Under the pieces are notes generated by a model that saw nothing but the letters and a program-made list of their open reading frames with translations, did not search any database and was not told the DNA's origin. From the NCBI GenBank assembly GCA_004524445.1, contig SDNP01000008.1:29080-93079 (forward strand): 64,000 nt of DNA. Reading direction: 5' to 3'. This document shows, in pieces, positions 5,415-39,022 of the stretch (position 1 is the stretch's first letter; each line of letters opens with the position of its first letter). The stretch comes from Candidatus Thorarchaeota archaeon. Its GTDB lineage: Archaea > Asgardarchaeota > Thorarchaeia > Thorarchaeales > Thorarchaeaceae. A program made the position numbers and the translations under genes.

Positions 5415-5654
5415 CTACTTCTTGCGTTTCAGGAACCACACTAGCTTATCATCTTCTTCTCGCAATTCAAGGATTTCATTGCCTGTGCGGTCAGCCCAAG
5501 CTGGAAAATCTTTCTTTGTTCCGATATCTGTCGCAATTACCTTGAGAATTTCTCCAACTTCTATTTCCTTCATTTCTTTCTTTGTCTTTAAAACCGGCAT
5601 AGGGCATCGCAACCCACTGGCGTCAAACTCCCTAGCAACTTGATGTTCAGTCAT
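5415..5654 (-). CDS. tusA: TusA/SirA sulfur carrier
   Basis: 'DASGLRCPMP' CPxP motif, 79 aa. Confidence 0.9.
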   Translation of the reverse strand: MTEHQVAREFDASGLRCPMPVLKTKKEMKEIEVGEILKVIATDIGTKKDFPAWADRTGNEILELREEDDKLVWFLKRKK

Positions 5655-5816: not shown

Positions 5817-6224
5817 GTGAGTGATATGGCGGTATACCAGCTACTTCTCTTCGTACTCTTTGCACTGAATATCAGCAGTATGTTTTCAGGATTCTTGCTT
5901 GCGAGACGAATGGGTATGTATCTTATGACACAGGTAATGATGTTGATGTTAGCAATGTTTGCTGGACTGGTTGGACTGGCATTTGGTATACTTCTGTACC
6001 CTGCAGTACCAGTATTGTTTGACCTATTACATCTTATAGTATTGATTGACTTTGTGCTAGTTTTCCTGGCAGCTCTGATGGAATTCATCCAGGTCCTGCC
6101 AATTCTGATGAAAACTATGCAAGGGGCTCCAATACACAGTTCACACATCACTAATCTTCTGCTGACAATGTTCTTAGCTCTAGCCATGGTTATCTATTAT
6201 GTAGATATTGCAACGATAATGTGA
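5817..6224 (+). CDS. Four-TM membrane protein, unknown function
   Basis: Four hydrophobic segments. Lies 14 bp upstream of the dsrE-like gene, which has a GGAG RBS. Confidence 0.6.
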   Translation: MSDMAVYQLLLFVLFALNISSMFSGFLLARRMGMYLMTQVMMLMLAMFAGLVGLAFGILLYPAVPVLFDLLHLIVLIDFVLVFLAALMEFIQVLPILMKTMQGAPIHSSHITNLLLTMFLALAMVIYYVDIATIM

Positions 6225-6238
6225 GGAGATGAAAAATA

Positions 6239-6619
6239 ATGGAAACAAGCAATAACAACTCGAGCATATATATAATCGCACAATGGGGTCCTGAGGCTGC
6301 TGAACGCTGTTATGCACCGTTCGTCACGGGAACAACAGCTCAGGCTCAAGAAGTCGAAGCGAAAATCTTCTTGATGATGGATGCAGTTTGGCTCGTAAAA
6401 AAAGGCATTGCTGAGAAAGTCACAGCGCCTGGATTTCCACCGTTGCCCGATCTGATAGATACATTTCTTGAGGAAGGAGGCAAAATTGAGGTTTGCTCAA
6501 ATTCGGCTCAATTCAGGGGACTTACATCGGACCAGTTCCGCGATGACAGAATCACCATCGCTGGCGCAGCTACTATGGTCGATGATACTCTGAATTACGA
6601 TCGTACGATGTACTTCTAG
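6239..6619 (+). CDS. DsrE/DsrF-like sulfur-transfer protein
   Basis: 'IFLMMDAVWL', 'GGKIEVCSNS..FRG', 'IAGAA' DsrE hallmarks. Confidence 0.85.
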   Translation: METSNNNSSIYIIAQWGPEAAERCYAPFVTGTTAQAQEVEAKIFLMMDAVWLVKKGIAEKVTAPGFPPLPDLIDTFLEEGGKIEVCSNSAQFRGLTSDQFRDDRITIAGAATMVDDTLNYDRTMYF

Positions 6620-6655: not shown

Positions 6656-7603
6656 TCAAAGCTTCGACAAAACCTCCCGGCCCATCAGCTCAATTTGTTC
6701 TTCCTCTTGTTCGTGCGGAAACATGAATATCAATTGATCACACCCAAACTCAATATACTCATGTATAGTCTGAGAAATATGTTCAGGAGTTCCCCAGAAA
6801 GCTGATTTTACGCGTTCGCGATATTCTTTCTCACTAATCCCTCTCGACTTTGCGTTTTGTCTAATGGTTTCTTCCATCTGCTCGTCAGTTTCAAAAACAT
6901 GGGTCCAAAGGCCAACAGAATATTTGAATTCATCAGGATTTCTGTCATATTGTCGCAGTTTCTTGTCTAGTCGTTCAAAGATATCCTTGGTATCACCTGG
7001 AGTAAATGACCAAGCAATGTTGATTCCATCGCCAAATTCAGCTGCCACATCAAGCATTTTAGGACCCGCCTTCATCGTACCAACCCAAATCGTCGGATGC
7101 GGTTGCTGCACTGGCTTAGGATAAGAAACGACCTCTTTAACTTCATAATGGTCTCCATTCATCGAGAATTTTTCTTCGGTCCATATTCCTCTAATGATCT
7201 GAATGGCCTCAGCGAGCTGTGCTATTCTAACTGAATCATCGGGAAAGGGAATCCCATATGCCTGATATTCCAATTGCTTCCAGCCGGCACCGATACCGAA
7301 TTCAAGTCGTCCATCTGAAACATTGTCTAACGATGCACCCATCTTTGCATGTAACGGGGGATACCGGTAGCTATTACAGAATACAAGACTGCCCATTCTG
7401 ACTTCTTTATTGAGCTGGCTCAGTGCGGCCATAATAATCCAAGGATCAAGCAGAACCCGGTCGGCTGTATCCTGATTCAACATGAAATGATCAGAGAACC
7501 AAAGAGTAGCTAGCTTGTTCTCCACTGCTAGGTCAGCAAGTTTCACGATTTCATCGAGTTCGAAGCCAAATTGTGGTTCAATTTGAATGCCAAAGCCAGT
7601 CAT
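6656..7603 (-). CDS. LLM-class (probably F420-dependent) flavin oxidoreductase
   Basis: 'WFSDHF', 'SDGRLEFGIGAGW', 'PKPVQQPHPTIWVG'. Start placed at ATG 7603. Confidence 0.85.
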   Translation of the reverse strand: MTGFGIQIEPQFGFELDEIVKLADLAVENKLATLWFSDHFMLNQDTADRVLLDPWIIMAALSQLNKEVRMGSLVFCNSYRYPPLHAKMGASLDNVSDGRLEFGIGAGWKQLEYQAYGIPFPDDSVRIAQLAEAIQIIRGIWTEEKFSMNGDHYEVKEVVSYPKPVQQPHPTIWVGTMKAGPKMLDVAAEFGDGINIAWSFTPGDTKDIFERLDKKLRQYDRNPDEFKYSVGLWTHVFETDEQMEETIRQNAKSRGISEKEYRERVKSAFWGTPEHISQTIHEYIEFGCDQLIFMFPHEQEEEQIELMGREVLSKL

Positions 7604-7652: not shown

Positions 7653-9437
7653 TTAGCAATGACTTGCCACCCGTGAGAATCTGGCACATCCTCTTATCAT
7701 CATCTCTGTTACTGCTTGACGAATTCTTGTTGCGTCTGTAAGACCAGCAATTTCTCGGTCACATATTCTTGTTACAGGCAACATTGGCAGGGCTTTCCTA
7801 TCTAAGTGAACAGATGGGTCATCGATATTTATGATCTCAATTGCAGAAGAGCTAATATCAAACAACTCTAAGACACCGACCAAAATATCCAAGGATGGAC
7901 CGCAAAATAAGCAATGGTCGGACATATAAAAGGCAATGCAGGAGTCCCGGCCACACTCTAAAGTCTCATCTTCCTTCCACAGGTCCAACTCGATAGCAAT
8001 ACGGGTTCCGAGAGAAGGTTTGCCTTCTACTCTATCTTCTACCCAAATTTCTCCCCCAATACTGTGAATAATCGTACGAACAAGGGTCAGACCTAATCCT
8101 CTTCCGCCGTTCCTACCTCCTAAAGACTGCGTTCTATTGAATATGATTCGCTTAAGACTATCAGGTATTCCTGGGCCTTGATCTTCAATCTCAATCCTAA
8201 CTCTGTCTTTGAAAGTCTTCTCGTTTACTTCTACTCTGATATTCGTCGCAGTACTGGGATCATGAACAATCGCATTCTCAAGTACATTAAAAAAAACATC
8301 TTCCAGGTTCTCGTTTGCAAAGACCTCCACGCCGTCAATACTACCCTCAAGAGTTATTTCTATATCCTTGTGAACTATCTGGTCTTCTATATGTGAAACC
8401 ACATTACGTATGCATGATGCTAGATTTACTGCTTCACGTTTGGGAGGGTGATCTCGAAGCTGATTGAGTTTGCGGAGATTGGATATCATTCTCGCTCCCC
8501 TCCTTATCTCCCAGTTCGCTTCTAGAAGCTTCGTCTTTGCGTCTTGGGGCAGTTTCACAGTTTCCAGAACATATCCGATGGAAAACAAAATACTCTGGTT
8601 CACATTATTCAAATCATGGGTCATTACTTCAGTCCACAGCGCTACTTGCTCTTGGGCAATATTCCTGCTTTCCTCTGCCGTTTTTCTGGCCGTAATATCG
8701 ACAGCCAGAATATCAATGACCGGCTTCTGTTCTAAATCAAAATATAGGGCGGTCAAGCTAACCCAAACCGACTCATTATCAGAATTTACAAGCTCGACCT
8801 CAATATCCTGAATTTTCTTACCCTGAAGCAATTCTCGGATGAGTTGAGACGTAATAGAGTTTTCATTGCCACCTGATCGCTTTATCAGAGGATCGAAGTG
8901 CCGTTTTAGAAGATCATCTCTTTTGTAACCCAATAGTTCAACTGCGGAGGCATTTATATCCTGAATGATCCCCCTCTTACTCAATCTAAAGCTCGGGACG
9001 AGGGAGTCGTATATTACGGTTTCATAATCGGACTTGGATTCTTGATAATCTCGCATGCCCCCACGGAGTTTGATTATGAAGCCATTGTTTGCGTTCAATG
9101 AAACAACGGAGCACTCTATATCATAAGGCGTAGACGTGCCCTTATACCTAATCATCCTAGCGGCGAGGACATTATCTTTTGATCTGGCAAGATTGGAGAG
9201 AAAAGATGCGCCACCTTGGTCATGTTTGATTTCCAAATCAATAACATCGAGAATTCTTTTTCCTACCAGTTCATCCCTGGGAACTTCAAGAAATCGCTCA
9301 GCAGCGTTATTACATGTGTCAATGGTATCTCCATTAATTATCAAAAGGGGTTCATTTGAAAGGTTGAGAATTTTTTGTACGAAGGATTCGCTCTCAAGAC
9401 TCCATTTCATTTCATGACAACCCCTAGCTAGGACCAA
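7653..9437 (-). CDS. PAS-PAS sensor histidine kinase with C-terminal CxxC thioredoxin-fold domain
   Basis: Two PAS domains, H-box 'MTHDLNN', N-box 'NVLENAI', 'DQGPGIP', 'GLGLT'. C-terminus 'FYMSDHCLFC...LPMLP'. ATG 9410 is an alternative start. Confidence 0.85.
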   Translation of the reverse strand: MVLARGCHEMKWSLESESFVQKILNLSNEPLLIINGDTIDTCNNAAERFLEVPRDELVGKRILDVIDLEIKHDQGGASFLSNLARSKDNVLAARMIRYKGTSTPYDIECSVVSLNANNGFIIKLRGGMRDYQESKSDYETVIYDSLVPSFRLSKRGIIQDINASAVELLGYKRDDLLKRHFDPLIKRSGGNENSITSQLIRELLQGKKIQDIEVELVNSDNESVWVSLTALYFDLEQKPVIDILAVDITARKTAEESRNIAQEQVALWTEVMTHDLNNVNQSILFSIGYVLETVKLPQDAKTKLLEANWEIRRGARMISNLRKLNQLRDHPPKREAVNLASCIRNVVSHIEDQIVHKDIEITLEGSIDGVEVFANENLEDVFFNVLENAIVHDPSTATNIRVEVNEKTFKDRVRIEIEDQGPGIPDSLKRIIFNRTQSLGGRNGGRGLGLTLVRTIIHSIGGEIWVEDRVEGKPSLGTRIAIELDLWKEDETLECGRDSCIAFYMSDHCLFCGPSLDILVGVLELFDISSSAIEIINIDDPSVHLDRKALPMLPVTRICDREIAGLTDATRIRQAVTEMMIRGCARFSRVASHC

Positions 9438-9559: not shown

Positions 9560-10198
9560 GTTTTCCTGACGCATGGATATGTTTATCATTACTCAATAAA
9601 TTGCATATGTGCTCAAGTATACAAGTATAAAACCAAAGAGGATGAGCGTTAGGGAACCCATCAATCTAAGCGAATCAGATATCGAGAATCTTACAAAGGC
9701 GTTTCAAATCTTGTCAGGCCCCTCAAGACCTCGTATCATAGAGATTCTAGCTCAAGATGAGAATATCACCGTGAGCGGGATAGCTAAAGGAGTTAACCTC
9801 AGTATTAGTAGTGTTAGTCATCAATTGAGTAAACTAAAGGAAAGAGGATTTGTGGGAGCCAAGAAAATAGGTCGAAAAGCAATCTATAGAATTGAAGATG
9901 AATGTATTCAGGCCATACTGAGGAGAGCCACCCCACATGTTAGATATCAGTGATACTGCGTGTCAGCACTGCGAAGCAGAGAGAGCTCAACAGCAGGAAA
10001 TAGACTTCAGGGTCAAGTATGCCTTGGCACTAATTTCGGACATACCACTTATTGGTGGAACATTGATACAAGTATTCACATCAATAGCATATGTTCCTCC
10101 AGTCCTATTTCTGATTTCAATATTCTCTGCAGGTAGATGGATAATTCCCAATGACATTAAGAGCATCATCAGGGTTCATTTGGGCATAACTTTCCTCA
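9560..10198 (+). repeat. Diverged direct-repeat copy of about 18215-18844 (promoter, arsR and 5' end of the ATPase gene)
   Basis: Long near-identical stretches, e.g. 'gaggatttgtgggagccaagaa' and 'gaaatagacttcag...caagtatgccttggcact'. Confidence 0.9.
9642..9953 (+). CDS. ArsR/SmtB-family regulator (duplicate copy, possibly degenerate)
   Basis: Paralog of 18297-18599. The original ATG reads AGG here, with an alternative in-frame ATG at 9642. The conserved DPxRL motif has become GPSRP. Confidence 0.75.
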   Translation: MSVREPINLSESDIENLTKAFQILSGPSRPRIIEILAQDENITVSGIAKGVNLSISSVSHQLSKLKERGFVGAKKIGRKAIYRIEDECIQAILRRATPHVRYQ

Positions 10199-10603: not shown

Positions 10604-13120
10604 TTACTCTTCTTGTTCGCCCTTCTCGATGATCGGAATAAGCCCCTTCCTCTTTAGAGGTGCTGAGATTCTATTCCTCGCCTTTTCATTCTCTTCCTTG
10701 ATCATGTCGATACCAATATCCTTGAGGCTCTGATTCAGCTCTTTCATTGTTCTTGCAAAGATGAGTCCCTCAGCAGCGGAGATCTCCTTCCATAGGAATC
10801 TCTCGGTGCTGATTCCTGCTCCTTCAAGCACCTTATGGTAGCGTTGGAACCTCTCATACGCGATAATATTTCCGCTGATGTAGTGACAGTCTGTGGGTCT
10901 GTGGCATGCACCCACCATGACTGCTCCGGCGCCAAGTCTGAAGGCCTCCGCGACAAAATCCGTGTCCACCCTGCCGGAGCACATCACTCTGATGATCCGT
11001 GAATTGGGGGGATAGGTGAACCTGCTTGTTCCTGCAAGATCAGACCCTCCATAACAGCACCAATTGCAGGCAAAGACCAGAATCTTTTCCTCGGCCTTGT
11101 CCTCCAGTGCTGCTCTGATCTGTGAGAAAATCATAGGGTCAGTGTAGTGCATCTGCTCAATAGCATCGTGGGGACAAGACGCAACACACGTGCCGCAACC
11201 ATGACAATTGGCTACGTTGACAACGGCAGCTTTACCGTCTATCGCTGTGATGGCAATGTAGGGGCATTTATCGACACAGATGCCACAGTCTCGCTCAAGA
11301 TTCTTGCATCTCTCGGGGTTAACAACGGCAACGATGGGTTCAATCTCGACAGTGTCTTTGGACAGAATGGTTGCAGCACGCGACGCTGCACCGCTGCCAG
11401 CTGATACTGAATAGGGTATATCTTTGAGACCCTGGCAGGCACCGGACAGGGTGATTCCATCCACAGGTGTATCGAGGGGCTTGAGCTTCGGATGTGCCTC
11501 CATGAAGAATCCGTCAGCGCTTCTAGTGATATGGAGTTTCGAGCCAAGCTCCCCAGTCCCAAAGCTTGGCTCACCAGCAGTTGCTAGGATTAGCAGGTCG
11601 ACCTCAACTTGGACCTCGCGTCCTAGCAGTATATCTTCAGAACGCACAATGAGATTCTTGGTTCTGGGGTCCTCGATGACCTCATATGGTCTGCCCTTTA
11701 TGAAGGTGAAGCCCGCTTCTCTTCCTCTTGTGTAAAATTCCTCATATCCCTTCCCAGTAGTCCTTATGTCGATGTACCATATGAATATCTCAGTGTCTGG
11801 GTAGTGTTCCTTGATCAAAGTAGAATTCTTTAAAGTGTACATGCAGCAAAAGTTGGAGCAATACTCGTATTTATTGACATCGCGAGACCCCACACATTGG
11901 ATGAAGCCCACGCGATGAGGGTGTTTACCATCAGACCTGCGAATTACTTCGCCTCCTGTGGGTCCTCCCGCACAAACGAGTCGCTCTACTTCAAGGGCGG
12001 TTATGACATTCTCGAATTTCCCGTAACCGTAATACCCTTCTTGCACAGCTTCAGATTCTCCTCCTCTGACAGGTTCGTACATGGAATGATAGCCCGTAGC
12101 CACGGTGATAGTTCCCACCTCAACTTCGATCTCTTCTGCTTCCTGTTCGAAGTCGATGGCTTGCCGTTCGCCGCAGACATCAACACACTTGTAACACTCG
12201 ATACAATGGTCACGGTTTATTGTGAACACGAGAGGTACTGCTTGTGCGAAGGGTACAGAGATGGCCTTTCGTGTTCCGAGATTCTGTTCCCACGCGTTGG
12301 GGTACTCGATTGGGCAGACCTCAGCGCACTCGCCACAGCCGGTGCAGTTATCTTGGATGACGTACCGGGGATTCTTTCGAATTCTGACCTTGAAGTTGCC
12401 GACGTATCCATCTACATGTAAAATGTCCGCAAACGAGAGGATTTCGATGTTGGGGTGTCGTCCCACCTCGACCATCTTTGGCCCCTCGATGCAGATTGAA
12501 CAGTCCAGTGTGGGGAAGGTCTTGTCGAGCTGAGCCATGTGACCACCAAGGCTCTCGTCATGTTCGACTAGATATGTCTTGTATCCCATATTGGCAAGGT
12601 CAAGAGCGGCATGGATTCCGGAGACTCCTCCTCCGATTACCATGGCTCTATCTGTCACAGGTACTTCGAACTTCTGCAAAGGCACGGTCAGTGCAGCCTT
12701 GACAACCGCCATTTTTATGATTTCTTTCGCTTTTTGCAGAGAGTCCTCCGTTTCCTCGTGACACCATGAGCAGTGTTCTCTGATATTCGCCATAATAAAA
12801 TTGAACGGATTCATTCCTGCCTCCGAAACCGTGACCCTAAAGGTGGGTTCGTGCATCCGAGGCGAACATGCGGCGACCACCACCTTGTTGAGATTGTGTT
12901 CCTTAATCCCCTCACGAATCTCCTTCTGACCAGGATCAGAACATGTGTATCGGTTCTGTTTTGCGTAGACAACCGAGTCCAGCGTTTTCACGTATTCTTC
13001 CAATGCGTCAATATCGAGAGTGCCAGCAATGTTGGAACCGCAATGACAGATGAAGACACCAATTCGGGGCTTTTCGGCTACGAGTGTCACGTGATTCTGT
13101 TCGGCCTGCGTGTCAGTCAA
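10604..13120 (-). CDS. hdrA: Heterodisulfide reductase subunit A fused to an MvhD domain
   Basis: 'RIGVFICHCGSNIAG', FAD motif GGGVSG, 'DKTFPTLDC', ferredoxin inserts. C-terminal MvhD motifs 'FACNWC..G.D', 'RVMCSGR', 'CH.P.DCHY'. Confidence 0.95.
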   Translation of the reverse strand: MTDTQAEQNHVTLVAEKPRIGVFICHCGSNIAGTLDIDALEEYVKTLDSVVYAKQNRYTCSDPGQKEIREGIKEHNLNKVVVAACSPRMHEPTFRVTVSEAGMNPFNFIMANIREHCSWCHEETEDSLQKAKEIIKMAVVKAALTVPLQKFEVPVTDRAMVIGGGVSGIHAALDLANMGYKTYLVEHDESLGGHMAQLDKTFPTLDCSICIEGPKMVEVGRHPNIEILSFADILHVDGYVGNFKVRIRKNPRYVIQDNCTGCGECAEVCPIEYPNAWEQNLGTRKAISVPFAQAVPLVFTINRDHCIECYKCVDVCGERQAIDFEQEAEEIEVEVGTITVATGYHSMYEPVRGGESEAVQEGYYGYGKFENVITALEVERLVCAGGPTGGEVIRRSDGKHPHRVGFIQCVGSRDVNKYEYCSNFCCMYTLKNSTLIKEHYPDTEIFIWYIDIRTTGKGYEEFYTRGREAGFTFIKGRPYEVIEDPRTKNLIVRSEDILLGREVQVEVDLLILATAGEPSFGTGELGSKLHITRSADGFFMEAHPKLKPLDTPVDGITLSGACQGLKDIPYSVSAGSGAASRAATILSKDTVEIEPIVAVVNPERCKNLERDCGICVDKCPYIAITAIDGKAAVVNVANCHGCGTCVASCPHDAIEQMHYTDPMIFSQIRAALEDKAEEKILVFACNWCCYGGSDLAGTSRFTYPPNSRIIRVMCSGRVDTDFVAEAFRLGAGAVMVGACHRPTDCHYISGNIIAYERFQRYHKVLEGAGISTERFLWKEISAAEGLIFARTMKELNQSLKDIGIDMIKEENEKARNRISAPLKRKGLIPIIEKGEQEE

Positions 13121-31566: not shown

Positions 31567-33318
31567 TTATTCAGCTGCCATCATCATCAGTCTTACGATT
31601 TCCTGACGCATGTCCTGTTCAGGTACGTATCCCGCCAGTCTACGACTTCCCAATTGTATTGCGGGTAATGCCGGTAGGGCATCTTCTGAAATGCCTGCGT
31701 CTGGGTCTTCCACATCCACAACTCTGATGGTCGACCTACTGATGCCCATATCATCCAGAACTGATGTTAGAGTGTCCAATACTGGGTCACAGAATACACA
31801 ATGCTGGGATTTGTAAAATGTGATAGGCGGGATTTGTAGTTGTTCTTGCCATCGTGGCAGAACGAGAATAAACTTACTACCCTTTGATGAATCTCCTGGT
31901 ATCCGGTCTTCCACCCAGACCCTTCCTCCGAGGTCTGAAACATATCTATCAACAACTGTCAAACCCAAACCTTTTCCTGGGGAGCCAGCCTCAGCAATAC
32001 TTTCTCTCTTGAATACATGTGGCTTACGGTCATCAGGTATGCCGGGTCCTCGATCTGCGAATTCTAGACGTACTTCACGACCCATATCGACAATACTCGC
32101 ATTAACATCGACTCGTACTTTCTTGCTCGGGTCATATATCATGGCATTGTGAAGAATATTGAAGAAAATACTCCAGAGAAACATATCGCCAAGGACTTCC
32201 AAAGACTCCTCTCCAATATTTGTGCTGATATCTAGGTCCTTCCATTCAAAATCGCGGTCGACCTCAGTTGCTGCCCTGTTGAAGTGTGTACTTACTCTTG
32301 TCTTAACTCGGTCAGGAGGACTTCTTGCAAGTTTAAAGAGAACCTCCATATTGGCAATCATACGCGATGATCTTCGAATATCCCATGCCGTTTCGTTGAT
32401 GAGTTCGAGTTCTTCTTCAGGGAGATCCAAAGACACTTTCAGATTTTCAAGTGCAAAGAGAGCGCTTTGATTAATAATATTCAAGTCACTTGTCATAAGC
32501 CCAAGATAGAGGTCTGCTCTCTCTCTTTCTTCTCTGAGTCGATCCTCAGCTAGCTTTCTCCTAGTGATGTCTACTGCCATTAGGCCTATCTCACGAGGCT
32601 TTTCAGAGCCCGGGGTAAGTGAACTAGAGGAGATGGAAGCCCAAATGGGACGCTTATCCGAGCGGACCATCTCCACTTCTAGGGCATTCACCGTCCGCCC
32701 TCTGGAAACTTCTGTCAAGATGTCTCCAGCTGGGTCATATTCTTCCGTTTTCTCTAGGAAAAGGGTCGAAAAATTAGCCCCAATAAGCCTATCTGCCGTG
32801 TAACCAAAGAGTTCTTCTGCTGCTTTGTTTACCTGCTCGATTATACCTTCACGGTTCAATGTCAGGTAGGCAATGGGCGACAAGTCGTAAAGATTCGCAA
32901 ATCTGTTTTCTAATTCAAGAACAGTTTCCTCAAGAGCAATTTGTCCGGTTACATTATTTACAGAAATCAGAACAGCATCAGCACCATCGAAATTAACAAT
33001 GCGGGGGTTGATTTCTACATGTAACAAGTCGCCATGTTTTGTCCTTAACCGGGTATTAAACGCTTCAACATCATCCGCGTCCGCAAGGGCATCTAGTAGG
33101 TTCCTATGGTGCTTACGGGATAAAGAATCTACAAGATTTTCAAATGGCATGAAAATGAGGTCATCCTTCTGGTATCCTATCATTGCAGAGAAAACAGAAT
33201 TTGCATCAACTATCTCGTTGTCTTGCAACACGACAATTCCATCGGTTACAATCTCGAGAATGTTATGTAGCCATTCAGTTTCCTTCTCATCATCTGGCAA
33301 AGATAGACCTCTTGTCAC
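31567..33318 (-). CDS. PAS-PAS histidine-kinase-like protein lacking the phosphoacceptor His, with C-terminal CxxC thioredoxin-fold domain
   Basis: Paralog of 7653-9437. H-box reads 'MTSDLN'; N and G boxes are intact. C-terminus 'FYKSQHCVFC...LPALP'. Confidence 0.85.
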   Translation of the reverse strand: MTRGLSLPDDEKETEWLHNILEIVTDGIVVLQDNEIVDANSVFSAMIGYQKDDLIFMPFENLVDSLSRKHHRNLLDALADADDVEAFNTRLRTKHGDLLHVEINPRIVNFDGADAVLISVNNVTGQIALEETVLELENRFANLYDLSPIAYLTLNREGIIEQVNKAAEELFGYTADRLIGANFSTLFLEKTEEYDPAGDILTEVSRGRTVNALEVEMVRSDKRPIWASISSSSLTPGSEKPREIGLMAVDITRRKLAEDRLREERERADLYLGLMTSDLNIINQSALFALENLKVSLDLPEEELELINETAWDIRRSSRMIANMEVLFKLARSPPDRVKTRVSTHFNRAATEVDRDFEWKDLDISTNIGEESLEVLGDMFLWSIFFNILHNAMIYDPSKKVRVDVNASIVDMGREVRLEFADRGPGIPDDRKPHVFKRESIAEAGSPGKGLGLTVVDRYVSDLGGRVWVEDRIPGDSSKGSKFILVLPRWQEQLQIPPITFYKSQHCVFCDPVLDTLTSVLDDMGISRSTIRVVDVEDPDAGISEDALPALPAIQLGSRRLAGYVPEQDMRQEIVRLMMMAAE

Positions 33319-33887: not shown

Positions 33888-34121
33888 CTATTCTTCCTTC
33901 AGGGAATAAACCAGCTCTTCGTTTTCATGACCTGTGACTTCAATTTGACCCCACCGCAGCATGCCCATAAGATTCCAGACAATCAAGTCTTTTGGATATT
34001 CCGTCCTTGAGGATAGCTGACTGACTGTGGCAGCTCCTTCTGTCAACATTTCTTGGATTTTCCGTCTTTGTCTGCGCACTTCGCCGCGTTTCTGGTCGAA
34101 GAATTGTCGGAACTTGGTCAT
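33888..34121 (-). CDS. Small winged-helix protein at the end of the hdr-mvhD operon
   Basis: ATGA overlap with the mvhD stop; 'ATVSQLS..T.YPK..IVW.L' wHTH pattern. Confidence 0.7.
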   Translation of the reverse strand: MTKFRQFFDQKRGEVRRQRRKIQEMLTEGAATVSQLSSRTEYPKDLIVWNLMGMLRWGQIEVTGHENEELVYSLKEE

Positions 34122-34567
34122 TTCCATTCTCTCCTAATTGGTCCGAGCTCTCTCACTTGTTCTGTCAATTTATTGACTCCATCTGCAAAGACTTGTGCCT
34201 CAGAAGCCGAGGCCCATTGCAGCCTTACTCTTCGTGGATTCAATCCAGATTGCTCAATGGCCTTTTCCATCAATGCCCATCTGGCTCGAGCCTTTAAGTT
34301 TCCGTTTGTGTAATGACAATCGCCTGGGTGGCAGCCTGAAACCAACACACCATCGGCACCCATTTCTAGGGCAGATAGTATGAACTCAGGTGTGATACGC
34401 CCAGTACAATTCACTCGGATGATCCGTGCGTTTGGGGCGTATTGTATTCGTGACGTGCCAGCAAGGTCCGCCCCAGCGTAGCTGCACCAATTACAACAGA
34501 ACGCAACTATCTGTGGCTCCCATTCCTTAGAATCCGACTGTGAAGGGGCTGTCTTCGCCTGTGTCAT
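34118..34567 (-). CDS. mvhD: [2Fe-2S] hydrogenase/Hdr adaptor subunit MvhD (Cys form)
   Basis: 'FCCNWCSYAGAD', 'RVNCTGR', 'GCHPGDCHY', 'WASASE'. TAATG overlap with the upstream gene. Confidence 0.95.
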   Translation of the reverse strand: MTQAKTAPSQSDSKEWEPQIVAFCCNWCSYAGADLAGTSRIQYAPNARIIRVNCTGRITPEFILSALEMGADGVLVSGCHPGDCHYTNGNLKARARWALMEKAIEQSGLNPRRVRLQWASASEAQVFADGVNKLTEQVRELGPIRREWK

Positions 34568-36315
34568 TACTTGGCACCTCCCTCTACAAGCTGTTCGGGG
34601 CAAAGATATGCTTCCACCATCGTCAATATCTGTTCATCGGTAGAGTGTCGCATTATTATCGCTCCACTTGGACATGCCGCAGCACAAGTACCACACCCGT
34701 GACATTTTGCCTCAGTCACTTTTGCGACTGCGGGTTCTTTTGTTTGATCAATAGCAATCGCCCCATATGGACAAGCTGAAACACAGGTATGGCATGAGGA
34801 ACATAGGTCCTCAATGACATGTGAAACTGTAGATTCGATTTCCACCTCGCCTCGAGCCATAAGGGCAACAGCCTTTGCTGCCGCACCACTTGCATCAACA
34901 ATAGATTCAGATGCACCTTTTGCAGCTTGGGCCGTTCCAGCAATCATGACACCGGCGGTGTGTGTGGTCAGCGGAGCCAGTTTGATATGCTCCGGGTTGA
35001 AGAATCCATCAGGACTACGGGTCAGACTAAATAGCTTTGCAACCTCTTGGGTGCCTTCAGCCGGTAGCATTGCAGATGCAAGAACAACCATATCTGGGAA
35101 AAACTCCAACCTATCACCCGAGAGCACATCGGTCCAGGTTATTGTAATCTGTCCATCTTTGTAGTGCACGACGGGTTTCTCATCGGTTGGAAACTTGCTG
35201 TATATAACATGTTTGCCCCGCGATTGTCTGTGAATTTCTTCATGATTCTTTCCATAAGTTCGTATGTCTTGGTAGAGGATTACTACCTCATCTAATTCAT
35301 CCCTAAGCTGAGATGCTGTATTTGCCACCGCAGTACAGCAATACCGTGAGCAGTGTTCGTGTCCCTTCGTATCAGGCTCTCGGGACCCGACACACCCAAT
35401 CATTGCAATCTTCTTCACCGGTCGTCCATCACTAGGTCTCTTGAGATCTCCGTCAGTCTTCATCTCCTCTAGTTCTGCCAAGGTAACGATGTCTGGAGAC
35501 CAGTCATATCCGTAGTAACCTTCGGGCTTGAAAGATTTGAAACCAGTCGCGATGACAGCTGTTCCGATATCCAGCTTCTCTTCCTTGTTTGTATCTTTAT
35601 TTTTGATTGTTACCTCAAAATTGCCGATGTATCCATCAAAGCCCACAACTTCGCTATTTGTGTAAACTTTGATGCGCTTATGTTTCAGAATTCTTTCCGA
35701 GAGTTCATCTACAATCTCCTCTCCAGACCTACCTGTCGGGTAAAGGCTGTGCCATTTTTTCACATGCCCCCCCAAATCTGGCTCACGTTCTACAAGGACA
35801 ACGTCGAACCCTCTGTCTGCGATGTCAAGCGCAGTGTGCATTCCAGTCACACCTCCACCCACTACCAGCGTTCGCGGAGTTACAGAAACGCTCTTGATGG
35901 GTAGGGATTCAAGCTTGGCGGCTCGAGCCACTGACATACGAACAAGATCTTTCGCCTTCTCTGTGGCTGCCTCTGGTTCTCTCATGTGGCACCAAGATAC
36001 GTGCTCTCGCAAATTAACCTGCTCGAAGAGATATCTGTTAAGACCCGCCTCTTCCACGACTCGTCTGAACGTTGGTTCATGCATTCTTGGAGAACAACTC
36101 GCAACCACAACCCGATTCAGGTTGTGTTCTGCTACTTTATCCTTGATTAGCTGTTGACCGCTGTCAGCACACATAAACATGTCATCAGTTGAGTAGACAA
36201 CATAGGGCAGATCCTGTGCCATCTCTGCCACTGACACGACATCCACTGTTCCTGCGATGTTGTGACCACAGTGACACACGAAGACGCCAATTCTTGGTTC
36301 TGCATCATCAGACAT
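34567..36315 (-). CDS. hdrA: HdrA-like subunit (N-terminal domain, FAD domain, C-terminal ferredoxin; QmoB-like)
   Basis: 'RIGVFVCHCGHNIAG', GGGVTG, 'CVGSR', C-terminal 2x[4Fe-4S]. Lacks DKTFPTLDC and the internal ferredoxin. Start ATG 36315 with GGAGG RBS. Confidence 0.9.
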   Translation of the reverse strand: MSDDAEPRIGVFVCHCGHNIAGTVDVVSVAEMAQDLPYVVYSTDDMFMCADSGQQLIKDKVAEHNLNRVVVASCSPRMHEPTFRRVVEEAGLNRYLFEQVNLREHVSWCHMREPEAATEKAKDLVRMSVARAAKLESLPIKSVSVTPRTLVVGGGVTGMHTALDIADRGFDVVLVEREPDLGGHVKKWHSLYPTGRSGEEIVDELSERILKHKRIKVYTNSEVVGFDGYIGNFEVTIKNKDTNKEEKLDIGTAVIATGFKSFKPEGYYGYDWSPDIVTLAELEEMKTDGDLKRPSDGRPVKKIAMIGCVGSREPDTKGHEHCSRYCCTAVANTASQLRDELDEVVILYQDIRTYGKNHEEIHRQSRGKHVIYSKFPTDEKPVVHYKDGQITITWTDVLSGDRLEFFPDMVVLASAMLPAEGTQEVAKLFSLTRSPDGFFNPEHIKLAPLTTHTAGVMIAGTAQAAKGASESIVDASGAAAKAVALMARGEVEIESTVSHVIEDLCSSCHTCVSACPYGAIAIDQTKEPAVAKVTEAKCHGCGTCAAACPSGAIIMRHSTDEQILTMVEAYLCPEQLVEGGAK

Positions 36316-36316
36316 C

Positions 36317-37648
36317 TCAGTCGCCTCCATCATTAAGGGAAATGGTTGCACGCATTGCCGCGGCGCTTCCCTCAGATACAGAATCGGGAATGTCTTTTGG
36401 TCCCTCTGCACATCCACAGACGTAAACTCCAGATATAGTAGTATCAACGGGAGTTGAAAGGGTGTCTCGGGCCTCGACATAGCCATTTTCGTCAACATCT
36501 AATCCTATCTTTTCTACGAGCTCTGCAAGTTCTGGCGGTGGTTGAATGCCAGGACTGAGAACAACTAAGTCATGTTCAACTTGAAGCACTTCACCGGTCT
36601 CCGTGTCTTCCACAGTTACAATCAAATTATTCGATTCAGGGTCTTCGACAACTTCTCCAACCCTGCCACGTATGAATTTCACGCCAAATCGCGTCTTCGC
36701 TCGCTCGTAGAACTGCTCGAAGTCTTTTCCAAATGCGCGGATGTCTAGATAGTAGACAGTCACATCTGTGTCGGGTTCGTGTTCTTTTGCCATTACGGCA
36801 TTCTTGATGCCGTACATGCAACAAATTCGCGAGCAAAGCGGAACGCCCTTGTTCACATCTCGAGCACCTACGCATTGAATAAAGGCGATGCTTTGGGGTA
36901 TCTTACCGTCACTCAATCGAATCATGTGTCCTGCAGTTGGACCTGCAGCATTGATTAAACGTTCATATTCCATTGCATGAATGACGTTGGGGAACTTGCT
37001 ATATCCAAAACGAGAGTATTCTGAAACATCAAAGAGATTGTATCCTGTTGCGATGATGATTGCTCCGACATTCAGCGTTATAGTTTCGTCTCTCTGGCTA
37101 TGGTTTATTGCCTCTCGCTCGCAGGCGGTGACACATCTGCTGCACTCGATACAGTTCTCCATATCTACCGTAACCACACTGGGAGTTGCTTGTGGAAAGG
37201 GCATATAGACCGCCTTTCTGAAACCCAGATTCTGGTCGAACTCATTTGGAACCTCGATAGGGCAGACTTCAATACACTGACCGCATCCTGAGCATAGTTC
37301 TTCTTCTACCATTCGTGCCTTCTTCAAGACCTCAACAGTGAAGTTTCCCTCTTCCCCTGTAACTTCCTTAACCTCCGAATATGTAAAAAGCTCGATGTCG
37401 GGATGACGTCCAACCTCACTCAGTTTCGGTGTGAGAATACATGCAGAGCAGTCCAATGTTGGAAACGTCTTGTCGATTTGAGCCATGCGTCCACCAATAG
37501 AGGGAGATTTTTCAACCAAATAGACATGGAAACCCTGATTTGCAATATCAAGGGCAGCTTGCATGCCAGAAACGCCTCCACCAATAATGAGTGCGTCTTT
37601 AGATGGTGATTTCTCCTTCATCTTTGTGGATGACTTTGTGATTGTCAC
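36317..37648 (-). CDS. hdrA: HdrA-like subunit (FAD domain with inserted ferredoxin, no N- or C-terminal domains; QmoA-like)
   Basis: GGGVSG, 'DKTFPTLDCSAC', two ferredoxin motifs, 'CSRICC', 'GPKDIP'. Confidence 0.9.
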   Translation of the reverse strand: MTITKSSTKMKEKSPSKDALIIGGGVSGMQAALDIANQGFHVYLVEKSPSIGGRMAQIDKTFPTLDCSACILTPKLSEVGRHPDIELFTYSEVKEVTGEEGNFTVEVLKKARMVEEELCSGCGQCIEVCPIEVPNEFDQNLGFRKAVYMPFPQATPSVVTVDMENCIECSRCVTACEREAINHSQRDETITLNVGAIIIATGYNLFDVSEYSRFGYSKFPNVIHAMEYERLINAAGPTAGHMIRLSDGKIPQSIAFIQCVGARDVNKGVPLCSRICCMYGIKNAVMAKEHEPDTDVTVYYLDIRAFGKDFEQFYERAKTRFGVKFIRGRVGEVVEDPESNNLIVTVEDTETGEVLQVEHDLVVLSPGIQPPPELAELVEKIGLDVDENGYVEARDTLSTPVDTTISGVYVCGCAEGPKDIPDSVSEGSAAAMRATISLNDGGD

Positions 37649-37652
37649 TTTC

Positions 37653-38525
37653 TTAACCTCCCAGAGTATTCATAATTGTTTCAGGACTGATTCGATTGAG
37701 CGCCAGGCCAAGAGCATCGTCCTCGATTCCTATTGCTGGCCCAAGCAGCTGTGGTAATGTGATTGTTGGCAAGAGTTGGCTTCTATCAATTTCACCAGAA
37801 AATTGTGCTTGAGTCAATTGGACATTACAAAATACACAGGCAGTTACAACACCCTGAGCTCCTGCCTTCTTGATGTTGGTAATCTTGTCCTGACCAATAG
37901 CTGTTGCGATGCCTTCATCCATCGCTAACATTGGACCTCCACAACATCGAGTCTTTCCAGTATAGTCAACAGGAGTTGCTCCTACAATGCTAATAAGGTC
38001 ATCAATAATCGTAGGCTCTTCGGGATCATCTACTTGAACAATATCGCCAGGTCGAGTCACATGGCATCCATAGTGTGCTGCAAGCTTCAGGCCATTATAT
38101 GGCCGAATAACTGCCGCCCCTATTTTCTCAAACCCAATATCTTCATTGAAAACCTGCAAGAGATGCCGCACTCTAGTTGTACCAGAATATTCAAGGTCTT
38201 CGTCGGCCAAAAGTTCATTGAGTTCATCCTTGGCTTCATCATTATTATCAAGATAATGCTTGTTTACTTTCAAAGACCCCGAGCAGGCCCCACAAATAGC
38301 TAACACATCTAGTCCCTCTTTTTCAGCAAGAGCTAATATTCTTCCACTCATTGCGGCGTAAGCGTTCCTTGATAGAGATTCTACGTATTGTGCGCCACAA
38401 CAATTAGCATCCTCCATTATTCGAACTTTCACACCTAATTTTTCTAATACTGCAATGGTAGCGGCTTCATAATTAGGAAGTCGAACTGGGGTCGTACAGC
38501 CGCGATAAAGCATAATCTCGTCCAT
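37653..38525 (-). CDS. hdrB: Heterodisulfide reductase subunit B
   Basis: Two CCG domains ('NCCGA', 'HYGCH..RP', 'CCGG', 'CVFC'). Confidence 0.93.
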   Translation of the reverse strand: MDEIMLYRGCTTPVRLPNYEAATIAVLEKLGVKVRIMEDANCCGAQYVESLSRNAYAAMSGRILALAEKEGLDVLAICGACSGSLKVNKHYLDNNDEAKDELNELLADEDLEYSGTTRVRHLLQVFNEDIGFEKIGAAVIRPYNGLKLAAHYGCHVTRPGDIVQVDDPEEPTIIDDLISIVGATPVDYTGKTRCCGGPMLAMDEGIATAIGQDKITNIKKAGAQGVVTACVFCNVQLTQAQFSGEIDRSQLLPTITLPQLLGPAIGIEDDALGLALNRISPETIMNTLGG

Positions 38526-39022
38526 TATTCTTCTACCTCGGGAAAGTATTTCTTCTTGACATGTTCTACGAATTTCTTATTCCATTTCAAATTCATTTCG
38601 AGACCCAAATCATCTCGGTCATCTTCAATGAAATCCGAGTAAGAATCTTCCAAAAGCCAACCATCTTTGAGAACTGTTTCAACGGTCTGCTTATAGGCAG
38701 ATGGAACATGGCCTTCTTTTGCAGCTATACGTCGAACTGCGTGGAATATATCTGAAGGACTAACTCCTTCTTGACATCTCTCCTCGCACATCATACAAGA
38801 CATGCATAGCCACGGCTGAAGACTTTTGAGAACTTCTTCACGTTCGCCTAGCAGTATCTTCTGTATGAGTTGACGGGGTCGATACTTGTCCGATTCGCGG
38901 GCAACCATGCAGGTTGCAGTGCAAATTCCGCATTGAACACATTTCTTTATTGCTTCGCCTCCGGGAACCTTTTCAAGCTCCTTAGCGAAGTCAGAGGATG
39001 GATGGTGAAGCTCGCCTTCCAA
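38525..39022 (-). CDS. hdrC: Heterodisulfide reductase subunit C
   Basis: 'CVQCGICTATC', 'WLCMSCMMCEERCQEGV'. Confidence 0.92.
   Translation of the reverse strand: MEGELHHPSSDFAKELEKVPGGEAIKKCVQCGICTATCMVARESDKYRPRQLIQKILLGEREEVLKSLQPWLCMSCMMCEERCQEGVSPSDIFHAVRRIAAKEGHVPSAYKQTVETVLKDGWLLEDSYSDFIEDDRDDLGLEMNLKWNKKFVEHVKKKYFPEVEE

Follow-up and report, generated by a model that had tools for sequence, protein, structure and literature searches.

Thorarchaeota histidine kinases with a cysteine-rich thioredoxin-fold domain behind the catalytic core

The window analysed here, a 64,000-nucleotide stretch of a Candidatus Thorarchaeota archaeon genome (GCA_004524445.1, contig SDNP01000008.1, positions 29,080 to 93,079 of the forward strand), encodes two kinase-like proteins, HK1 and HK2, both of which end in a small thioredoxin-fold domain, hereafter the tail. 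An original prediction, made from the DNA sequence, had placed the two open reading frames (ORFs) at 7653-9437 and 31567-33318, and both exist as described, on the minus strand. By ORF calling and Pfam, HK1 (7653..9437) is a soluble kinase in which two PAS domains, a dimerization and histidine phosphotransfer (DHp) region and a HATPase_c domain are followed by a tail with six cysteines. It is 594 amino acids long from a TTG at 9437 and 585 from an ATG at 9410; the ATG is the likely start, and is the one in the database record (P0005) and the orthologues. HK2 (31567..33318, minus strand; 583 amino acids) is a paralogue from a histidine-less clade and has a two-cysteine tail. HK1 and HK2 share 33% identity over 446 amino acids, the last ~95 residues included, and neither has a hydrophobic segment of the membrane-spanning type (maximum KD19 in HK1, 1.77).

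Pfam recognizes two PAS domains and HATPase_c in both proteins (HATPase_c at 72 and 65 bits), in agreement with the PAS-PAS-HisKA-HATPase order first proposed. Neither protein matches a Pfam HisKA-family model at E<=1. NCBIfam whole-kinase models (AtoS, PnpS, PhoR) align through the DHp region of these kinases, and the H-box is present in HK1, where it reads VMTHDLNNVNQS and includes His274. This phospho-acceptor of the H-box THDLNN (codon 8616..8618, minus strand), a mark of class I (HisKA-type) sensor histidine kinases, is kept in 26 of 26 live tailed kinases. The HATPase_c domain of HK1 spans residues 377-486 (7980..8309, minus strand), and its N, G1 (DxGxG) and G2 (GxGxG) boxes are intact by Pfam and alignment, as they are in HK2. 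At the C-terminus there is no match to Response_reg, the receiver (REC) domain; the domain there has a thioredoxin fold, and the proteins are thus not hybrid kinases. As part of our best overall explanation, which we hold with moderate confidence, HK1 would be a cytoplasmic, orphan sensor histidine kinase.

The tail of HK1 covers residues 492-594 (7656..7964, minus strand), with a folded core at about 501-583. Neither tail reaches the threshold of PF13192 or of any other thioredoxin (Trx) or glutaredoxin (Grx) model, and a search of PDB sequences with the single tail sequence returned one weak thioredoxin match (E 0.68). A profile built from an alignment of 40 tail-family sequences (A2) matches MTH895 (1nho, 3e-6), MJ0307 (1fo5, 1.3e-5) and a glutaredoxin (7c10), and aligns the CxxC and cis-proline of the tail with the CPYC or CPHC and the AVP of 1nho and 1fo5. 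From the same alignment, AF2 gives a model with a pLDDT of 86.5 and the element order β-α-β...β-β-α (tail positions: β1 10-14, α1 21-34, β2 42-46, β3 64-67, β4 70-73, α3 78-91); from the single sequence the model is poor (pLDDT 50). The top Foldseek matches of the alignment-based model are all Trx, Grx or NrdH, and the top VIA-align matches are all thioredoxins or glutaredoxins (Z 9.3-8.0). The corresponding tail of HK2 (31570..31836, minus strand) was placed by alignment. Two weaker stand-alone paralogues in the same genome, L004 and L005, exceed the threshold of Pfam Thioredoxin_3 (PF13192), and it is only through them and the family profile that the tail family is linked to the Thioredoxin_3 clan. 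Collectively, the profile and the models support well, and we are confident, that the tail adopts a minimal thioredoxin fold. The Trx/Grx-type tail of the original prediction thus passed the fold check by profile, AF2 and Foldseek, as did its view of a conserved C-terminal module, common to both paralogues and seated where hybrid kinases hold their receiver.

Conservation was counted over 32 tailed kinases from 16 genera, which are only about 30-40% identical overall. The CxxC of HK1, C509-L-F-C512, is preceded by His508 and lies at 7902..7913 (minus strand), exactly where it had been predicted; that of HK2 is C507-V-F-C510 (31789-31800). Both the CxxC and the cis-proline, which is Pro554 in HK1 (7776..7778, minus strand) by alignment and profile, are retained in 32/32 kinases, so that a failure of the motif to persist in homologues, which would have counted against the original prediction, is excluded. 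In the family the active site reads H-C-[LVIF]-[FW]-C, with the histidine in 31/32 and a proline never inside the motif. That account had overlooked four further conserved cysteines of HK1-type tails: Cys495 and Cys500 (CGRDSC, CGRxxC in the family; 7938..7955, minus strand) just before β1, Cys559 (7761..7763, minus strand) at the end of β3, and Cys584 (7686..7688, minus strand) just after α3, usually as C-F/Y. These accessory cysteines, placed by alignment and for the last two also by the model, are shared by most stand-alone members of the family and are absent from HK2. Twenty-nine of the 32 kinases have all four and three have none; because they are kept or lost together, with no partial set, they form one functional unit. 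In a thioredoxin fold β1 and β3 are antiparallel neighbours, and the start of β1, the end of β3 and the end of α3 lie at the pole opposite the CxxC. This topology, together with the secondary structure of the AF2 model, suggests that the four accessory cysteines cluster beside the linker, at the end of the fold remote from the CxxC. The linker itself is short, as HATPase_c ends at residue 486 and β1 begins at 501, with two of the cysteines between.

A tail of this kind need not be redox-active. It could be an inert structural or docking knob, stabilized by a metal (Zn or an iron-sulfur (Fe-S) cluster), that serves dimerization or partner binding as the KaiB-like domain of SasA binds KaiC. In VIA-align the N-terminal domain of SasA (1t4z, Z 8.3) and KaiB (Z 8.1) score level with many thioredoxins, and because of this tie the fold alone is compatible with a KaiB-like role. 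The six cysteines, with additional GCxCGC inserts in stand-alone relatives, suggest metal binding, and the CxxC dipeptide is atypical and without proline; one of the profile matches is human Grx2, a glutaredoxin with a proline-less CSYC that we take to be Fe-S-bridged. There is also a weaker two-cysteine paralogue encoded 17 nucleotides upstream of a KaiC-family ATPase. SasA and KaiB, on the other hand, have no CxxC, and the SasA domain is N-terminal. Pfam KaiB gives the tails no score, and the KaiC-family genes of this genome are on other contigs, none near either kinase. Moreover, the CxxC, the cis-proline and the preceding histidine are the most constrained positions of the tail, even where the four accessory cysteines have been lost. 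We regard the docking explanation as unlikely.

The original prediction had named HK2 as a paralogue of HK1 and missed that alignment puts Ser277 (codon 32488..32490, minus strand) in place of the phospho-acceptor histidine. HK2 belongs to a clade of six members (tree support 1.0) in which this position is serine in three, HK2 among them, lysine in one, glutamine in one and histidine in one. The clade has retained the adjacent aspartate, the N and G1 boxes, the CxxC and the cis-proline; G2 is intact in four of the six, including HK2, and has its first glycine replaced in L011 and L021. HK2 and two further members have also lost the four accessory cysteines. All 26 tailed kinases outside the clade, by comparison, keep the histidine, the aspartate, the N box, the six cysteines and the proline, along with the first and last residues of G1 and the first two glycines of G2; the exceptions are a serine at the middle G1 glycine in one and at the last G2 glycine in two. 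Since the acceptor histidine is lost while the ATP-binding motifs are kept, HK2 is, judged from these residues, probably a pseudo-kinase that does not work as an ordinary histidine kinase. It might bind to or heterodimerize with a partner, or phosphorylate some other substrate.

In 1.84 billion representative proteins, searched exhaustively with a profile, the tail has only 114 relatives at E<=1e-3; about 17 of them are kinases of 450-590 amino acids with the domain at the C-terminus, and most others are stand-alone proteins of 100-120 amino acids. Among sampled genomes of the GTDB family to which the window belongs, 60/61 match the family profile (23/23 of those of high quality), with 3-8 copies each, as stand-alone genes and as ORFs of about 590-610 amino acids. 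A 301-genome sample of the phylum gave matches in 76/76 genomes of this family, the listed ones at E<1e-25 except for two fragmentary ones (about 1e-13 to 1e-15), and weak matches (1e-9 to 1e-17) in other families. Five genomes of other families were inspected: a sister family has stand-alone forms only, and in another the module sits inside long ORFs and not as a kinase tail. Pfam further identifies distant Trx_3-like fusions, namely PAS-Trx-PAS-kinase, Ras-like GTPase-Trx and Trx-V4R. These are represented by P0093, a small Ras/Arf-like GTPase with a C-terminal Trx (282 amino acids), P0120 (Trx-V4R, 485 amino acids) and P0088 (PAS-Trx-PAS-kinase, 660 amino acids), and another Asgard family has ORFs of corresponding size. 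In the ESM Atlas, the tail structure falls in a 91-member kinase cluster that is commonest in Candidatus Thorarchaeota and annotated as PAS and HATPase_c only. The source databases name the tailed kinases "PAS domain S-box-containing protein" or "hypothetical protein".

Could the tail be an ordinary catalytic thioredoxin fused by chance, or a remnant in decay that plays no part in signalling? In favour of this, the solved proteins nearest to it are true small thioredoxins, and stand-alone forms occur in every genome of the family. The fusion, however, counts as kept in 76/76 sampled family genomes, across kinases of low overall identity, with no frameshift or decay and with an atypical dipeptide. 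The genome also encodes classical thioredoxins (WCGPC, CPYC), a two-unit PDO-like protein and two near-threshold TrxR-like genes, and because these separate classical thioredoxins and TrxR-like genes are present, the tail is not the general reductant of the cell. We consider a chance fusion or remnant very improbable.

Several stand-alone relatives were located in the genome of the window. A 109-amino-acid member with six cysteines (L003:1453-1779, plus strand; C41:15164-15493) lies just downstream of an ORF (L003:877-1353) whose sequence reads as flavodoxin-like. In other genera, a homologue of this ORF accompanies the stand-alone gene at a distance of about 0.1-2.5 kb in 8/16 loci, and a convergent 151-amino-acid gene is near the stand-alone tail-family gene in 11/16; the flavodoxin could be a redox partner of the stand-alone six-cysteine protein. 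A second such member, of 111 amino acids (C1:83369-83704, plus strand; L006:1459-1791), has a putative ATP-grasp gene on one side and a putative gene for a proteasome alpha-subunit on the other, both named from their sequences; another kinase gene (C1:85749-87200) is about 2 kb away. The two-cysteine Thioredoxin_3 paralogue L005:1447-1770 (plus strand; C19:89619-89945) scores 23.6 bits with Pfam KaiB, below threshold, and is followed 17 nucleotides on by the KaiC-family ATPase match, which runs off the contig end. The two are perhaps an archaeal KaiB-like/KaiC pair in which the CxxC has been kept.

About 50 nucleotides downstream of HK1 is a gene for a luciferase-like (F420-type LLM) oxidoreductase (6656..7603, minus strand), a probable operon partner. 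Beyond it lie genes for a DsrE-family sulfur-carrier-like protein (6239..6619, plus strand), for a small DUF5400 membrane protein that is always paired with the DsrE gene (5817..6224, plus strand), and for a TusA sulfurtransferase-like protein with a CPxP motif, RCPMP (5415..5654, minus strand). Divergent from HK1, on its other side, is a gene for an ArsR/SmtB-family regulator (9609..9953, plus strand), followed by an 838-amino-acid HdrA-MvhD fusion (10604..13120, minus strand) that is accompanied by a polyferredoxin gene. For 20 tailed kinases of 15 other genera, some 18 kb of surrounding sequence was searched with the neighbours found in the window; the counts that follow are of genera with a live six-cysteine kinase, the window included. 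The ArsR gene is beside the kinase in 9/16 genera, as is the TusA-DUF5400-DsrE trio, whose DsrE copies are 66-79% identical beside the kinase in eight other genera. The LLM gene is immediately downstream in 7/16 and 4 kb upstream in one more (L015). At least one of ArsR, LLM and TusA-DUF5400-DsrE is near the kinase in every one of the 16 genera, and the pattern extends to every branch of the kinase tree. The ArsR neighbour is never beside a histidine-less clade member; two of these share the TrmO or GNAT neighbours seen in the window.

The neighbouring regulator has its best PDB matches among regulators with an α5 metal site, SmtB and CzrA (1r22, 1r1u; E about 2e-11). Its motif D-x-C...H, invariant in 10/10 orthologues beside tailed kinases, aligns with the α5 metal-site residues D104/H106/H117 of SmtB and D84/H86/H97 of CzrA. 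The regulator is unlike these proteins in that a cysteine stands in for the first histidine ligand and the position of the fourth ligand lacks conservation, and its pairing with a kinase is unusual for the family. Going by these residues, it may be a thiophilic-metal- or thiol-sensing variant. The intergenic region between HK1 and the ArsR gene was searched for an ArsR-type inverted repeat, and none was found.

The gene for HK2 comes after an hdrC-hdrB-pyr_redox-hdrA-mvhD cluster and before a TrmO-like gene. The cluster (34118-39022, minus strand) is succeeded by a 79-amino-acid ORF without a family match, and its two HdrA-like ORFs (34567-36498 and 36317-37648) overlap by about 180 nucleotides in different frames. 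Proximity to Hdr genes had been noted in the original prediction for both kinases, and in the window it is real, at 0.8-1.2 kb from each; it is not conserved, as the 20 loci from the 15 other genera have no Hdr/MvhD homologue within some 7-9 kb of the tailed kinase. The Hdr link is thus local to this genome.

The window had been said to hold no receiver-domain gene, which proved correct for the whole contig. A census of the genome counts four receiver domains, all on other contigs, against nine kinase-like genes; three of the four are stand-alone proteins of about 125-130 amino acids and the fourth ends a 206-amino-acid ORF with a hydrophobic-looking N-terminal part. One of these four might be the response regulator of HK1. 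At 20 related loci, there are no receiver genes within about 9 kb except for one weak match 7 kb away. Such an orphan state is usual for kinases in archaea; in Methanosarcina acetivorans, kinases outnumber receivers about 3:1 (PMC11784639).

This scarcity of receivers invites an explanation in which the tail is an output, with the kinase core controlling access to the CxxC and thiol/disulfide or sulfane-sulfur exchange with the ArsR cysteine or with TusA/DsrE replacing phosphotransfer to a receiver. The tail occupies the C-terminal site of a receiver, the locus has no receiver gene in a genome of four receivers for nine kinase-like genes, an ArsR gene with an invariant cysteine is divergent beside the live kinase in 9/16 genera, and proteins of the HK2 clade drop the histidine but never the CxxC. 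We know of no precedent for a thiol-output kinase tail, however, and the live kinases keep the acceptor histidine and all catalytic boxes, which implies ordinary phosphotransfer. The ArsR adjacency is moreover not universal, and because the ArsR cysteine is at the classical α5 metal-ligand position, metal sensing explains it more simply. An output role of the tail therefore seems unlikely to us.

From the observed domain order, fold, conservation, phyletic range and neighbourhood, we infer a role for the tail as a regulatory module that gates the kinase by thiol, sulfane-sulfur or thiophilic-metal status, a reading that we judge about evenly balanced between right and wrong. In this reading, a very short linker ties the catalytic domain to a sensor module that has a thioredoxin fold and six cysteines. 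The exposed H-C-x-F-C site of the module would change state, by forming a disulfide, persulfide or polysulfide or by binding or losing a metal or Fe-S cluster, and the second, four-cysteine site at the opposite pole near the linker would probably do likewise. Such a change could alter how the tail packs on the ATP-binding or dimerization domains and so tune autophosphorylation. Because TusA/DsrE carriers and an ArsR regulator that resembles SmtB/CzrA and has an invariant cysteine have been kept beside the kinase, the signal would most likely be the status of thiols, sulfane sulfur or thiophilic metals inside the cell. Thiol or metal chemistry is preferred to mere docking because the strongest constraint falls on the H-CxxC and the cis-proline. 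Gating is favoured overall by the short tether, by the all-or-none four-cysteine site at the junction and by the conserved sulfur-carrier and SmtB-like neighbours. The presence of related Trx_3-like modules in other Asgard signalling proteins (PAS-Trx-PAS-HK, GTPase-Trx and Trx-V4R) also counts towards it.

Several points weigh against the gating module. Sensor domains are usually N-terminal, whereas the tail follows the catalytic domain, and two PAS domains already supply sensing in these kinases. The CxxC dipeptide, L/V-F, is unlike that of any characterized redox-active thioredoxin, and the isolated tails of HK1 and HK2 have zero matches in Pfam and NCBIfam even at E<=10. Synteny within the family is partly inherited and incomplete, with each neighbour present in about half of the genera. 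As a warning, redox-dependent autophosphorylation had been published for the archaeal kinase RdmS, and the claim was afterwards withdrawn as artefactual (PMC11784639).

The gating module could be part of a longer, receiver-less route peculiar to Thorarchaeota, in which the tail responds to sulfane sulfur or a thiophilic metal and acts by thiol chemistry or contact on the cysteine-bearing SmtB-like regulator and, through it, on the genes of a TusA-DsrE relay, with HK2 as a modulating partner. We offer this scheme as speculation and think it distinctly unlikely as a whole; if it were true, histidine-kinase scaffolds would have an output of a new kind. The tail itself defines a small, unannotated family of cysteine-rich thioredoxins, with 114 representatives among 1.8 billion proteins. 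Asgard archaea are the closest prokaryotic relatives of eukaryotes and their signal transduction is almost unstudied; related Trx_3-like modules recur in their signalling proteins, a Ras-like GTPase fusion included. Archaeal kinases are mostly without known partners or signals, and a design kept family-wide beside sulfur-carrier and metalloregulator genes gives a testable handle on thiol, sulfur or metal sensing in anaerobes. The pair of live and histidine-less paralogues is in addition a natural experiment on kinase versus pseudo-kinase function.

How do these proteins compare with known systems? The nearest solved relatives of the tail are MTH895 and MJ0307, which share with it, and with Pfam Thioredoxin_3, a minimal β-α-β...β-β-α fold of about 80 residues. 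In both of them, as in the tail, the CxxC caps the N-terminus of helix 1 and a cis-proline precedes strand 3, and these features align residue for residue. The tail differs in being fused to a kinase, in its dipeptide (L/V-F instead of P-Y or P-H), in the histidine before the CxxC and in the four extra cysteines; helix 2 is also shrunk to a loop in the AF2 model, and PF13192 gives no score.

Among kinases, a full-text literature search for "thioredoxin-like domain" with "histidine kinase" brought up SasA of Synechococcus as the only relevant case. Both SasA and the tailed kinases combine a histidine kinase with a thioredoxin-like domain of comparable fold similarity (1t4z, Z 8.3). In SasA, however, the KaiB-like domain is N-terminal, lacks a CxxC and binds KaiC, whereas the tail is at the C-terminus, its CxxC is invariant and KaiC is not encoded nearby; it was on these grounds of position and motif, and not on fold, that membership in the SasA/KaiB group was rejected. 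A census of archaeal two-component systems lists no kinase-thioredoxin fusion (PMC5847659). In line with the original prediction, which knew of no characterized kinase of this architecture, our literature search found no description of one, and the thioredoxin-tailed kinase is, as far as that search reaches, an undescribed, lineage-wide design of Thorarchaeota.

Of other sensor kinases, ArcB, RegB/PrrB and SrrB are disulfide-switched, NreB and AirS are Fe-S sensors, and in all of them sensing is cytoplasmic. The likeness to what we propose for HK1 is that cysteine oxidation or an Fe-S centre governs output. In ArcB, RegB, SrrB, NreB and AirS, the cysteines are in the linker or in the DHp, catalytic (CA) or PAS domains, and to our knowledge none of these kinases has a thioredoxin-fold domain after the catalytic domain.

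The histidine-less clade has its own parallels. Bacterial pseudo-kinases such as DivL likewise lack the acceptor histidine. In RdmS and MsmS of M. acetivorans (MA_type 2), as in the HK2 clade, the acceptor histidine is missing and the ATP-binding motifs are kept (PMC11784639). Both groups are orphan, cytoplasmic and PAS-containing, in organisms where kinases outnumber receivers. The H-box-less RdmS and MsmS bind and hydrolyse ATP and do not autophosphorylate (PMC11784639). They differ from HK2 in that their whole H-box is absent and sensing is through heme and GAF domains, whereas HK2 keeps the frame of the H-box with a single replacement of the histidine (S, K or Q in the clade) and carries a thioredoxin tail.

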